From Escherichia phage FL20, in sequence record PP400781: a DNA stretch of 64,000 nucleotides; one strand, written 5' to 3'. Positions 5,608-28,503 of the stretch are shown here, piece by piece (position 1 is the first letter of the stretch; the number at the start of each line of letters is the position of its first letter). The translations under genes and the position numbers were made by a program. A model generated the notes under the pieces. It did no database searches. It was not told the DNA's origin and saw only the letters and a list, made by a program, of their open reading frames with translations.

Positions 5608-5968
5608 AGGTTGCAAGCCTATATTCTATTGGGAGCGAAAATAGATACACACAACAAAGACAGGAAGATGCAGAACATCGGTGGGTTGCTAGCCTAAATC
5701 CGGTGGCTATGATATGTGATTGATTTTGATGCTGGATTTATTAAAACACAACAAACAATTCCACCAATTTTCGTAGTAACTGCATGGCAAAGGGACCAAT
5801 GAATGAAATGAGCGTTCATGTTGATATTGGGTCGGATAGATTTGGTAGATATACAGATCTGGTGTATGCCGACCTTGTTATGACATTCCAGTGTGACGCT
5901 AGCGGTAATTTTTGGTTTTGGTACGCTGTTCCCCGAATTAACCCAAAATTCTCCATAAGGAGGAATGC

Positions 5969-6121
5969 ATGAGTAAGAAAGAAAACAGCTATGTTATGAC
6001 TCGTAAGGAATACAACGAATTGATGTTAGCATTAGCTTATGCAATTATTCGTTCTGATCATGCAATTAATCTGGTAAACAAAGTTAACCGTAGCGTTGAT
6101 AATGTTTCTAGGAAGAAGTAA
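5969..6121 (+). CDS. hypothetical small protein (50 aa)
   Basis: ORF below track cutoff; strong SD AAGGAGG 5 nt upstream of ATG; sits in 23-24 intergenic region where T4 has segD. Confidence 0.4.
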   Translation: MSKKENSYVMTRKEYNELMLALAYAIIRSDHAINLVNKVNRSVDNVSRKK

Positions 6122-26129: not shown

Positions 26130-26309
26130 TTAGAACATTTTTGAAATTAATTCTGCTTTGATTTCGCAGAGAACATCTAAAGATTTCTCGTCACCCGCTT
26201 TTGCTGCTTCTGCTTGCATTTTTGAAATGGCTTCAATGTCAGTGCAATTATAAGCCGCTTGAACTTTAGCTATTGCGATGATTGCCGATTCGATGGTTAA
26301 GTGTTTCAT
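26130..26309 (-). CDS. hypothetical small protein (59 aa)
   Basis: ORF with AGGAGAATC RBS downstream of PeSL. Confidence 0.4.
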   Translation of the reverse strand: MKHLTIESAIIAIAKVQAAYNCTDIEAISKMQAEAAKAGDEKSLDVLCEIKAELISKMF

Positions 26310-26371
26310 GTTTGATTCTCCTTTCGTTTCGGTATGTGTGCATTATAGGGGATCACCGATCCCCCTGTCAA
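26310..26371 (-). promoter_or_regulatory. PeSL-like early promoter cassette
   Basis: TTGACA / 18-nt palindromic spacer GGGGGATCGGTGATCCCC / TATAAT / leader / RBS. Confidence 0.7.
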
Positions 26372-26378
26372 CAATTTT

Positions 26379-26897
26379 TTAGTTATTTTTTAATTGCTCA
26401 TCTTGCAATAGGGCAATCACATGCTGGCGATGTTCTTCCGATTGAGGCACACCGAAAAAGTTTGTTTTGTAGAAATACTCTAATCGGTCTTCTCGTGTGC
26501 TCTCTTCCATCATGATCGCGGGTAGTCCGAGATTTCGGAAACGTCGCTTTTCTGCTGGCGTAAAATCACTGTAATACAACATAGAATCATCATTACAAGC
26601 AATGCTAAACTCATCCTTCATAAAGGAGAATATTGCGTTTAAACGCTGTTTACCGTCCACGATTTCGATCTCATAGCGAGAGCCATCATCAATCTTAGCC
26701 ATTGCGATAGCACCAACCGGAAAATCATTAATCAGGTTTTCGATAAACATACGTTTGTTTTCGGTGTCCCATACTAAAGGACGCTGATAATCTGGGTTCA
26801 TGTTGATATAGCCATCTTCTAACCATGCATCATAAACAGAGATGACAAAGTTTTTAGTATTGGTATAGTAACGGCGTTTAGGCGTTAAACGGTTCAT
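26379..26897 (-). CDS. DUF262 (ParB/GmrSD N-terminal-like) domain protein
   Basis: DYQRPLVW and IVDGKQRL match DUF262 QR and DGQQR motifs; start at MNRL coupled 1 nt after upstream stop with AGGAG RBS. Confidence 0.65.
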   Translation of the reverse strand: MNRLTPKRRYYTNTKNFVISVYDAWLEDGYINMNPDYQRPLVWDTENKRMFIENLINDFPVGAIAMAKIDDGSRYEIEIVDGKQRLNAIFSFMKDEFSIACNDDSMLYYSDFTPAEKRRFRNLGLPAIMMEESTREDRLEYFYKTNFFGVPQSEEHRQHVIALLQDEQLKNN

Positions 26898-26898
26898 G

Positions 26899-27231
26899 TT
26901 ATAGTCTCCTGAATGGATCATCACGTAAATCAATATCTTTTAAGAACTCATCCCATGAATGCCGGATATTGTTCTTAATTCTCCAGATAAGCGCAGGGAT
27001 TGAACGCTCTCCCATCTGGAAGTATGGATCATATGATCCGTATGCCCAATATGCTACTACAATTCCACAATCAGCGCAATAGTATTCTATTTCACTTGCT
27101 GGCGACCAAAGTCCATCAATATGATCGGTGATCTTGCTTTCGATGTTATGGCTATGACAATCAGGGCAACGGATGCAATGACCTTGTTTATCGTAATTTG
27201 ACGTTAGCGAATACTTAAACAATCTCATCAT
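26899..27231 (-). CDS. Cys/His-rich zinc-ribbon-like protein
   Basis: CIRCPDCHSH ... CADCG paired CxxC motifs; overlaps neighbours by 4 nt. Confidence 0.5.
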   Translation of the reverse strand: MMRLFKYSLTSNYDKQGHCIRCPDCHSHNIESKITDHIDGLWSPASEIEYYCADCGIVVAYWAYGSYDPYFQMGERSIPALIWRIKNNIRHSWDEFLKDIDLRDDPFRRL

Positions 27232-27944
27232 AGATCCTTATTTGCTTCAAATACTGCCTTTGCGAATCCTCGCGGGGTAAGTGACCTGATAGTCTTTGTT
27301 TTCGTTCCTTTCCCGCCTAGCTTAGAATGCTGTTTACTGTACCCTTTATTAATCTGCAAAGGTTTCTTTTCTGGCATTATAAAGCCTTGTCCGGTCCATA
27401 AGCAAGTCTTTTTTGGGTACATATCACGGGCGGCAATATACTCAGGAAACGTAGGATGCTTATCATCTTCCGGCAAATAACCGCCATATTCCCACGGATG
27501 GAACATATAATCAGGCTTACGCCACATGCTAGAGATAACGCTTACAGGATTCTCTATCATGTAGGGAACTCCTAGCCATTCACCCAAATAAGCGGTTATT
27601 TTAGCTGCCCTTACATCATGAACTTGAATCAATGGTCCTTGTTCTAGTTTCTTTCGTTCAAAGTGCGCAGCGCCACTAACAGCTAAATTGGTGCACGGTG
27701 GGAATGCAAAGATAATATCCGGTTTCCCCCATTCAAGGTCCATTGCTCTTTCCAGCCAATTCAAATCAATCCAGGTGTTTACATAGGTAATGTTTTGATG
27801 TTCAAATCGGGTATTATATTTTTTGTATGTACCGTGGTCGCCATCATCAGCATTAAAGCAGATCACCTTATGACCTGCTTTAGCCCATTCTAGCCCCATT
27901 ATCCCCGATCCGTCAAAGTTGCAGAATATTAATTTTTGTTTCAT
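27228..27944 (-). CDS. C5-cytosine methyltransferase-like protein (short)
   Basis: FCNFDGSG (motif I-like), FAFPPCTNLAVSG (PC motif IV-like), YMIENP (ENV motif VI-like); only 238 aa, no clear target-recognition domain. Confidence 0.45.
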   Translation of the reverse strand: MKQKLIFCNFDGSGIMGLEWAKAGHKVICFNADDGDHGTYKKYNTRFEHQNITYVNTWIDLNWLERAMDLEWGKPDIIFAFPPCTNLAVSGAAHFERKKLEQGPLIQVHDVRAAKITAYLGEWLGVPYMIENPVSVISSMWRKPDYMFHPWEYGGYLPEDDKHPTFPEYIAARDMYPKKTCLWTGQGFIMPEKKPLQINKGYSKQHSKLGGKGTKTKTIRSLTPRGFAKAVFEANKDL

Positions 27945-28186
27945 ATACGACCCTTTAACCCAGCACAGATTTTAGTCGGTTCTTTACCGTGCCACATTAA
28001 GTAAAGTCCGTTAATGCGACCTTGTTTTGTGTGTGATTCTTTTCTGATCTTCTTATAGTGTCGTGCTTCCTCAACCGATTGTTTAGAATACCAATCATAA
28101 AGGAAGAGGAACAAAGGCCAGCCATTAGCGACCTTAATACAGTTATTCAAAAATTCCTTATTTCGTTTAATTAATTTTCTTTTCAC
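27941..28186 (-). CDS. hypothetical small basic protein (81 aa)
   Basis: Translationally coupled within the 28434-to-26379 operon. Confidence 0.45.
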   Translation of the reverse strand: MKRKLIKRNKEFLNNCIKVANGWPLFLFLYDWYSKQSVEEARHYKKIRKESHTKQGRINGLYLMWHGKEPTKICAGLKGRI

Positions 28187-28434
28187 GCTGCCCCCATTGG
28201 TTTGATAGTAACAGAATCTAAAAGACCTTTGTTAGCCAGTTCGCGGCAAGTTTTCAGATCCGCAACTTCCCAGCCAGCCGCAATCAGGTTATCAATCAGG
28301 CTGTTAGCAACTTCTTCGCTCATGAAAGAGCACTGTTTGCCGATGGTGTAGCGCACACGCTGTAATTTCAGTTTACGGAAGCCTTTAACGTTCAGGTCTT
28401 TAGCGATTTTCTTTGCGGTTTCGATGTTAGCCAT
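28183..28434 (-). CDS. hypothetical small protein (83 aa)
   Basis: First gene after PeSL; N-terminus MANIE shared with 25846..26058. Confidence 0.5.
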   Translation of the reverse strand: MANIETAKKIAKDLNVKGFRKLKLQRVRYTIGKQCSFMSEEVANSLIDNLIAAGWEVADLKTCRELANKGLLDSVTIKPMGAA

Positions 28435-28503
28435 TGTTTGATTCTCCTAAGTGGTATCTCGTCTTGATGGTTGTATTGTAGGGGAGTTATCCTCCCCTGT
28501 CAA
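28435..28503 (-). promoter_or_regulatory. PeSL-like early promoter cassette
   Basis: TTGACA / palindromic spacer GGGGAGGATAACTCCCC / TACAAT / leader / AGGAGAATC RBS. Confidence 0.7.

Follow-up and report, generated by a model that had tools for sequence, protein, structure and literature searches.

A PeSL-bounded five-gene accessory cassette of RB49-like Krischvirus phages with a probable orphan C5-methylase-like gene

Introduction

One of the questions raised by the genome of Escherichia phage FL20 (record PP400781) regards five coupled minus-strand open reading frames (ORFs) at positions 26379–28434 of the window, by which we mean the whole stretch of 64,000 nucleotides (nt), given as one strand, that was analyzed. 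The ORFs encode two small proteins (from orf83 and orf81), a protein of 238 amino acids (aa) that resembles C5-cytosine methyltransferases, a 110-aa zinc-ribbon protein and a 172-aa stand-alone ParB/DUF262 protein. An earlier note on this DNA suggested that such a set of genes makes a DNA-modification or anti-restriction module. We ask here whether the five genes form one conserved system of this kind, or whether they are a mosaic of phage genes that move independently and came to share a promoter.

The arrangement itself is not new and is already annotated in phage RB49 and about 55 other Krischvirus genomes. The unit is accessory and annotated, and its elements are of known kinds: a C5-methylase-like gene of the orphan type and a ParB/DUF262 domain, set within a PeSL cassette. 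By definition (PMC2839356), a PeSL lies between genes in the hyperplastic part of an RB49-type genome and combines a sigma-70 promoter of consensus type with a GC-rich hairpin inside it. The best explanation as a whole, to which we assign a probability of about 0.5, is that the unit is an early accessory cassette bounded by PeSLs, that it belongs to the hyperplastic region of a Krischvirus of the RB49 type, and that it carries a probable orphan methylase acting at sparse sites.

Organization of the unit and its promoters

The five ORFs run from 28434 down to 26379, where the earlier note had placed them, and are flanked by two PeSL promoters. The first gene, orf83 (28183–28434, minus strand, ATG start, 83 aa), corresponds to RB49p190 and to PHROG 14908 (E 5e-59). 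It is followed by orf81 (27941–28186, minus strand, 81 aa; RB49p189.1; PHROG 7065, E 5e-38), which encodes a small, basic protein and starts with a GTG that overlaps orf83 as GTGA. The gene of the 238-aa protein (27228–27944, minus strand; RB49p189; PHROG 757, E 2e-89) overlaps orf81 as ATGA, and so does the zinc-ribbon gene (26899–27231, minus strand; RB49p188; PHROG 2993) with the gene before it, a second ATG being found 3 nt downstream. The 172-aa gene (26379–26897, minus strand; RB49p187; PHROG 1583) comes after a TAA stop codon and a 1-nt gap. The description of all junctions as ATGA-type overlaps or 1-nt gaps was thus right for two ATGA overlaps and one gap and has to be amended for orf83/orf81, where the overlap is GTGA. 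Since each of the ORFs matches a PHROG family (E 5e-34 to 2e-89) and most show an excess of synonymous differences, we regard all five as real genes.

The unit does start at a PeSL promoter (28475–28503, minus strand), in agreement with the earlier note. It has a −35 hexamer TTGACA at 28503–28498, a hairpin GGGGAG-GATAA-CTCCCC at 28497–28481 and a −10 hexamer TACAAT at 28480–28475; this TTGACA-17-TACAAT promoter matches the sigma-70 consensus at 11 of 12 positions and holds a 6-bp stem between its hexamers. An AGGAG Shine-Dalgarno sequence lies between it and the orf83 ATG. The downstream PeSL (26342–26371, minus strand) is a TTGACA-18-TATAAT promoter with a 12/12 consensus match and a hairpin GGGGATC-GGT-GATCCCC with a 7-bp stem, and it begins 7 nt past the stop codon of the 172-aa gene. 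As read from the sequence, a purine-rich Shine-Dalgarno-like run precedes every one of the five starts, and a scan with the sigma-70 consensus found no promoter of comparable strength inside the five-gene unit.

It was shown by experiment that the PeSLs of RB49 and phi1 are strong early promoters and terminators, and that they mediate modular shuffling in hyperplastic regions (PMC2839356). The elements at 28503 and 26371 have the defining design, with G/C stems of 6–7 bp embedded between the hexamers, and from this likeness we infer promoter and terminator activity at the present unit. Host sigma-70 RNA polymerase would start at the 28503 PeSL soon after infection and produce one polycistronic mRNA, whose five reading frames would be translationally coupled, and transcription would be attenuated at the next PeSL hairpin (about 26365–26348), which by analogy is the likely terminator of the unit. 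The promoter of this downstream PeSL would in the same way drive the next gene, a 59-aa ORF at 26309–26130.

The likeness to the PeSL cassettes described in RB49 and phi1 (PMC2839356) includes the same promoter–hairpin–Shine-Dalgarno design; those cassettes flank non-essential ORFs (RB49 ORF183–21x) and show insertions and deletions (indels) at the PeSLs. However, the present unit holds five coupled genes rather than the single ORFan of a typical cassette, and it is nearly fixed in its genus. In the window there are six PeSL-type promoters, all on the minus strand (26371, 28503, 28747, 32031, 33456, and 44801) and all with a G/C hairpin of 6–7 bp in the spacer; the spacers at 26371, 32031, and 33456 are near-identical, which makes these elements potential recombination partners.

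Occurrence and selection within Krischvirus

Phage RB49 (genes RB49p190 to p187) is matched by the window at about 98% identity, and the region of the unit is 97–99% identical to about 55 Krischvirus genomes. The RB49 counterparts p190, p189.1, p189, p188, and p187 sit just upstream of alt, and RefSeq labels p189 'DNA methyltransferase'. By taking as Krischvirus records those phage records in which the neighboring alt gene has at least 95% identity, we found at least 80% of the unit in 56 of 58. Phage JSE covers only 89% of the unit (which part is absent was not mapped). In phage TB34 the locus is 98.0% identical to the window, and a few residues differ in four of the five proteins. In ELT3 and ELT4 there is extra DNA of roughly 725 bp upstream, outside the unit.

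The differences among Krischvirus alleles suggest that the methylase, zinc-ribbon and DUF262 genes are under purifying selection, with synonymous to nonsynonymous counts of 20:6 and 11:5 for the methylase, 8:2 for the zinc ribbon, and 9:2 and 7:3 for DUF262. The differences in orf83 are almost only synonymous. The least constrained gene of the unit is orf81, for which the counts are 8:7 and 5:7 (a ratio near 1) and for which no match was found in the IMG/VR contig L011; judging by these sequence comparisons, orf81 appears to be a variable and unstable member of the unit. In the same contig, a 76-aa ORF (5774–6004) with an orf83-like C-terminus abuts the methylase gene. Residues 12–75 of orf83 weakly match positions 722–785, in the C-terminal region, of the PADLOC UG35 DRT reverse-transcriptase model (E 2.6e-5), which may reflect a shared small helical domain or chance.

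The methylase-like protein

The predicted structure of the 238-aa protein is that of a class I Rossmann methyltransferase fold, closest to the solved catalytic domains of C5-methylases. Its structural neighbors are the catalytic domain of DNMT3A/3B, M.HhaI and the prophage CP-933R protein 3g7u, and the best matches are DNA enzymes. The C5-methyltransferase-like motifs that had been noticed earlier are indeed present: motif I as FDGSG (residues 10–14), motif IV as PPC (with Cys84) and motif VI as ENP (131–133), to which a motif IX-like segment, RSLTPRG (220–226), can be added. In an alignment of 61 diverse homologues Cys84 (in FPPC), Glu131, Pro133, Lys178, Thr180, Trp183, and Arg220 are invariant, and Asn132 is conserved in at least 90% of them. 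The acidic residues that end strands 2 and 3, at the positions of motifs II and III, are also conserved, which we read as what is expected for binding of an adenosyl cofactor. The model and the alignment support the view that the protein has the fold and the catalytic dyad of a C5-cytosine enzyme.

The fold assignment rests on the predicted structure, because sequence searches against solved structures gave nothing or marginal hits. The single 238-aa sequence found no match among them, and the family profile reached only M.HaeIII (E 0.65) and DNMT2 (E 1.2) in the PDB. An hhalign comparison placed FPPCTNLAVSG on GFPCQAFSISG of M.HhaI, at motif IV only and with low probability. NCBIfam gave no useful match for any of the five proteins.

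By size and distribution the 238-aa family is a large, phage-specific branch of the C5-cytosine methyltransferase fold that is without a target-recognition domain (TRD). One search gave more than 7,300 proteins and another gave 1,136 clusters at 50% identity; nearly all members have 210–260 aa, and canonical C5 enzymes have about 320 or more. Only about 35 residues lie between the strand with K178-T180-W183 and motif IX, which leaves no TRD. The family occurs in 1,520 of 50,697 phage records (~3%) and in many genera, among them Dhillonvirus and T1-like, Webervirus and rV5-like phages, where it usually stands alone.

The closest known system is that of the orphan Dcm-type C5 methylases of phages (PF00145), which have the same fold, with Pro-Cys and Glu-Asn-x placed as expected and an RxLTPR segment like motif IX, and which are likewise lone early phage genes without a cognate nuclease. 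Yet, the 238-aa protein differs from them in that it has no TRD, a motif I that is poorly conserved in its family and no recognizable motif X, scores below the Pfam gathering threshold, and belongs to a genus in whose DNA no methylation product was reported. It is well established that phages and plasmids use orphan methylases against restriction (PMC11541004). We favor the orphan-methylase reading because a broad family that is usually found as a lone gene has the pattern of orphan phage methylases. The 238-aa protein would then be an orphan DNA C5-methylase that depends on S-adenosylmethionine (SAM), with Cys84 as the likely nucleophile on C6 of a flipped cytosine and Glu131 as the likely proton donor to N3. 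Its target would be a short sequence that occurs infrequently in the replicating DNA of the phage, and methylation there would protect this DNA from a subset of host restriction enzymes. We consider the chances that the protein is an active DNA methylase to be about even.

DNA modification and restriction sites

Several findings weigh against such an activity. In Pfam, PF00145 scores 13.5 bits where the cut-off is 22 (E 0.048; residues 10–93 of the 238-aa protein), and E values below 0.01 are reached by only 2 of the 61 family members. Motif I, the FxGxG of SAM binding, is poorly kept within the family, whose consensus is LFDxTG and some of whose members lack the Gly. Motif X (of the GN(A/S)V type) is absent, and the protein ends about 12 residues past RSLTPRG. 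With motif I degenerate in the family and motif X not recognizable, SAM binding is not assured. Literature searches found no biochemical study of any member of the family, nor any experimental work on methylation in RB49. In the Krischvirus TB34, high-performance liquid chromatography and mass spectrometry (HPLC/MS) detected no modified nucleosides (2026 Durham phage study, PMC13390438). RB49 DNA is cut by HpaII and NheI, both of which are sensitive to 5-methylcytosine (5mC), and RB49 plates on E. coli K-12 (PMC4041780). In the BASEL phages, methylase genes and restriction resistance are not simply related. Sparse site-specific methylation below bulk detection would still be compatible with the TB34 and RB49 results, the amount of 5mC being too low for HPLC of bulk nucleosides.

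Another option, which we consider unlikely, is that the 238-aa protein does not methylate DNA in vivo at all and is instead a pseudo-enzyme, a DNMT2-like m5C methylase of RNA (tRNA), or a CmoX-like C5-pyrimidine enzyme that uses a different cofactor or group. This option agrees with the TB34 nucleoside data and the HpaII digestion of RB49, as well as with the degenerate motif I of many members, the absence of motif X and TRD and the score below the Pfam threshold. Against it, the invariant Cys84 and Glu131 together with purifying selection argue for an active C5-pyrimidine enzyme, the acidic residues of strands 2 and 3 are conserved and the best structural matches act on DNA. An abundant adduct other than methyl would, moreover, also have shown in the HPLC/MS of TB34.

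We counted restriction sites over the window (1–64000) and compared them with the expectation of a maximal-order Markov model. Four hexamers are absent: GAATTC (0 vs. 15.7 expected), AAGCTT (0 vs. 13.5), CTGCAG (0 vs. 7.5) and GGTACC (0 vs. 7.8). CCWGG (20 vs. 71) and GGCC (22 vs. 68) are also avoided, and GATC, CGCG, TCGA, and GCTAGC are found at expected counts. This avoidance fits a phage whose DNA is mostly unmodified, and for such a phage site-specific protection would be of benefit.

The ParB/DUF262 protein

The 172-aa protein was described earlier as a stand-alone DUF262 domain, and this holds. Pfam GmrSD_N (PF03235) matches it with E 5.9e-20, well above the threshold, and its sequence has QRxxxW (Q38–W43, in DYQRPLVW), DGKQR (81–85) and FxxxN (F142–N146); the motif definitions and the Menshen architecture were taken from PMC12065111. 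QRxxxW, DGxQR, and FxxxN are all invariant in the alignment of short DUF262 homologues, and so is a C-terminal motif, GVPQSEEH, that is specific to this short family. The model structure (mean predicted local distance difference test, pLDDT, of 85.7) matches the N-domain of pNOB8 ParB, BrxU, PadC, SspE, KorB, and sulfiredoxin. The chain stops after DUF262, without a ParBDB DNA-binding domain and without a nuclease domain, and Pfam, NCBIfam and PADLOC found no nuclease domain in any of the five ORFs. Based on the model, the protein is best described as a bare ParB/DUF262 nucleotide-binding domain. The 172-aa protein thus belongs to DUF262 by the GmrSD_N profile, and the 238-aa protein has the predicted methylase fold, so that neither lies outside the assignment made in the earlier note.

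The type IV enzymes GmrSD, BrxU, and SspE, as well as Menshen NsnA, share with the 172-aa protein the N-terminal ParB/DUF262 domain that binds nucleoside triphosphates (NTPs), its motifs and its fold. In contrast to GmrSD, BrxU, and SspE, the 172-aa protein has no DUF1524/HNH nuclease, either fused or adjacent, and is encoded by a lytic phage. In contrast to Menshen (NsnABC), there is no ParBDB, no NsnB ABC-ATPase and no NsnC effector, and the next gene is the 59-aa ORF behind its own promoter. The best matches among defense models are Menshen NsnA (E 6e-20) and PD-T4-2_A (E 5e-12), in both cases in the DUF262 part only; the NsnA model is matched only at its positions 48–187 of 385.

With low certainty, we suggest that NTP is one ligand of the 172-aa protein and that DNA or a partner protein is the other, and that it either helps the methylase to engage DNA, as in fusions of ParB-N with methylases, or interferes with host defenses that are based on DUF262. 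Such a helper or anti-defense role is drawn from analogy, and its low certainty counts against the explanation that we prefer for the whole unit.

The second of these roles can be stated more specifically. The DUF262 protein could be an anti-defense decoy that binds NTP, pairs with the ParB/DUF262 domains of host GmrSD/BrxU, SspE, Menshen NsnA, PD-T4-2, or Dazbog and poisons their activation, independent of the methylase. The protein keeps the three DUF262 motifs and has no DNA-binding or effector domains, and this, the matches to NsnA and PD-T4-2_A, the early promoter, the accessory-rich region and the presence of homologues in early or accessory regions of Slopekvirus and ST64B are in line with it. 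However, Krischvirus DNA is reportedly unmodified, so that GmrSD-type enzymes should not target these phages; TB34 carries the gene, but its resistance to BrxU is already explained by unmodified DNA, and the decoy mechanism itself comes from analogy alone. We regard the decoy as improbable.

The zinc-ribbon protein

The CxxC zinc ribbon of the earlier note is confirmed by conservation. In six homologues from six phage groups, C22, C25, C52, and C55 are invariant, together with E47, Y64, G65, and P69, and a YWAYGSYDP motif is conserved in the family. The Pfam TFIIB zinc ribbon matches the protein with E 5.6e-4, below the cut-off. From the sequence, the 110-aa protein is most simply read as a four-Cys zinc ribbon with two conserved CxxC knuckles. 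The zinc ribbon and the two small proteins would be independent accessory proteins.

The CxxC...DHIDG...CxxC arrangement of this protein is superficially like an HNH or His-Me finger, and it was tried as an HNH nuclease. The DH is not conserved in the five homologues, and no HNH or DUF1524 match was found in Pfam, NCBIfam or PADLOC, so this assignment was rejected. The same evidence bears on the idea that the DUF262 protein and a zinc-ribbon nuclease are a split GmrSD, which would exclude competing T-even phages by sensing their modified DNA. In its favor, GmrSD was first found on a prophage (PMC13390438) and the finger-like arrangement is there to be seen, but with the DH conserved in none of the five homologues, no HNH or DUF1524 match and no co-occurrence of the DUF262 and zinc-ribbon genes outside Krischvirus, this idea is largely refuted and highly improbable.

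In the Salmonella Felixounavirus VSe11 (contig L138, 1483–3186) the zinc-ribbon homologue overlaps the start of a dihydrofolate reductase gene, with thymidylate synthase next, i.e., it sits in a nucleotide-metabolism operon.

Gene neighborhoods outside the genus

Is the set of genes kept together elsewhere? Homologues of DUF262 and of the zinc ribbon were gathered by tblastn in phage records and by pattern scans in viral contigs (k-mer searches gave seven and one relatives, respectively). A zinc-ribbon, DUF262 or orf83 gene within 6 kb of a methylase homologue was found in 1 of 80 viral loci, the Krischvirus one. None of the 79 other methylase loci carries the partner genes at this distance, which implies that the methylase family works without DUF262 and the zinc ribbon. 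Slopekvirus has the DUF262 protein without a methylase, and so does the temperate phage or prophage ST64B in its early-left region; zinc-ribbon homologues stand alone in Queuovirinae (Nonagvirus), Felixounavirus, Gorganvirus, and Jedunavirus. About 22 of the 27 non-redundant short-DUF262 loci have no methylase nearby.

The claim of a DNA-modification or anti-restriction module has to be divided accordingly. Its domain calls largely stand, and its unity is not supported, given the single locus of 80, the partners that occur alone elsewhere, the lack of detectable modified nucleosides in TB34 and the cutting of RB49 DNA by HpaII and NheI. The unit is not a conserved multi-component system but a genus-specific mosaic, in which phage genes that move independently would have been assembled by PeSL-mediated shuffling.

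Short DUF262 genes do adjoin unrelated DNA methylases at three of the 27 loci (a raw count), in two or three other lineages, which is a weak signal. In contig L136 (4001–6850) the short DUF262 lies beside an N6_N4 methylase (E 8e-20), after which comes a 437-aa ParB_N+N6_N4_Mtase fusion; in L115 (4001–6449) the neighbor is a DUF4942+MTS methylase; and in L005 (3953–5507) an SPPY methylase with a weak Pfam match (E 1e-3) overlaps the DUF262 gene. Two further candidates were rejected: the supposed 'PPCS' methylase beside DUF262 in L132 proved to be an Ala-rich ORF of low complexity, and the Dam-like ORF in L127 has no Pfam support. The adjacency of DUF262 and methylases may be a recurrent link. 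Fusions of ParB-N with methyltransferases in phages and plasmids, such as the one in L136, likewise link a ParB-superfamily domain to a methylase in an early or accessory region. They differ from the Krischvirus unit, where the zinc-ribbon gene separates the genes of the two, the ParB-like domain is DUF262 and not ParB_N, the methylase is C5 and not N6/N4, and the linkage is not conserved outside the genus.

One can argue from these loci that the methylase, the zinc ribbon and DUF262 are one split modification module, in which the ParB/DUF262 protein, with or without the zinc ribbon, would load a TRD-less methylase onto DNA or target it there in an NTP-dependent way, much as in the widespread fusions of ParB-N with methyltransferases. 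The three genes are coupled and kept together in the 56 Krischvirus records, even in L011 without orf81; the methylase has no target-recognition domain of its own; and the short DUF262 homologues beside methylases in L136, L115, and L005 would fit. Against this stand the 0 of 79 other methylase loci with a DUF262 or zinc-ribbon gene within 6 kb, the short-DUF262 loci without a methylase, the solitary zinc ribbons and the adjacency that comes without a background rate, as well as the fact that no modified bases were reported in TB34 or RB49 DNA. By analogy a split module is conceivable, and we hold it to be quite unlikely.

In the Klebsiella Slopekvirus VAC66 (contig L008, 2926–4418) a 304-aa gene without a Pfam match lies downstream of the short DUF262 gene and overlaps it; its product could be a lineage-specific partner.

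Comparison of SAP and TB34

Another question is raised by phage SAP, which is 99.96% identical to TB34. It is reported to contain 5-hydroxymethyldeoxycytidine (5hmdC) and alpha-glucosyl-5hmdC, for which no pathway is known, and to be sensitive to BrxU, where TB34 is unmodified and BrxU-resistant (PMC13390438). Within the five-gene locus the coding sequences of the two phages are identical. In SAP the 79-bp PeSL cassette (window 26300–26378) is duplicated in tandem directly 3' of the DUF262 gene (612–690 of the SAP locus L006, compared with L007). In the first 50 of 165 kb this is the only structural difference between the two, and it makes up 79 bp of the 112-bp difference in genome length.

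The comparison of the first 50 kb (L142 vs. L143) gave 20 differences in all, i.e., 11 single-base indels, most of them in homopolymer runs, eight substitutions and the duplication. All eight substitutions lie at CCWGG sites of TB34 that read CCSGG (CCCGG or CCGGG) in SAP, and they affect 8 of 28 such sites. Nanopore miscalls at Dcm-type 5mC would be expected to turn CCWGG into CCSGG in this way. The substitutions look like a sequencing artifact at Dcm-type 5mC sites rather than real divergence, and they hint that SAP DNA is methylated at CCWGG, by host Dcm or by a phage enzyme.

The duplication adjoins the phage's only methylase-like gene. Because the only structural difference between SAP and TB34 in the first 50 kb lies beside the unit, one may picture a split module of a new kind, formed by the bare ParB/DUF262 protein, the TRD-less methylase-like enzyme and possibly the zinc ribbon. 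In it, an NTP-gated, ParB-like clamp would bring a minimal cytosine-C5 enzyme to DNA soon after infection, and changes in expression could alter recognition by type IV enzymes such as BrxU; we consider this very unlikely. A mixed lysate is a simpler explanation of the SAP chemistry, and the 79-bp duplication may be irrelevant.

Conclusion

The reading that we prefer, an accessory cassette with a probable orphan methylase that acts at sparse sites, matters beyond this genus. Krischviruses are found in phage therapy collections, and the gap in modification and BrxU sensitivity between near-identical isolates is of practical relevance there. As for the bare DUF262 protein, it may serve as a methylase helper, or as a decoy against the growing set of defenses based on DUF262. 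The 238-aa family is routinely labeled 'DNA methyltransferase' or 'Dcm', and the only genus of the family with published nucleoside data shows no modification. Settling the function of the family would correct or validate thousands of annotations, and it would help to predict the restriction fate of therapeutic coliphages and Klebsiella phages.

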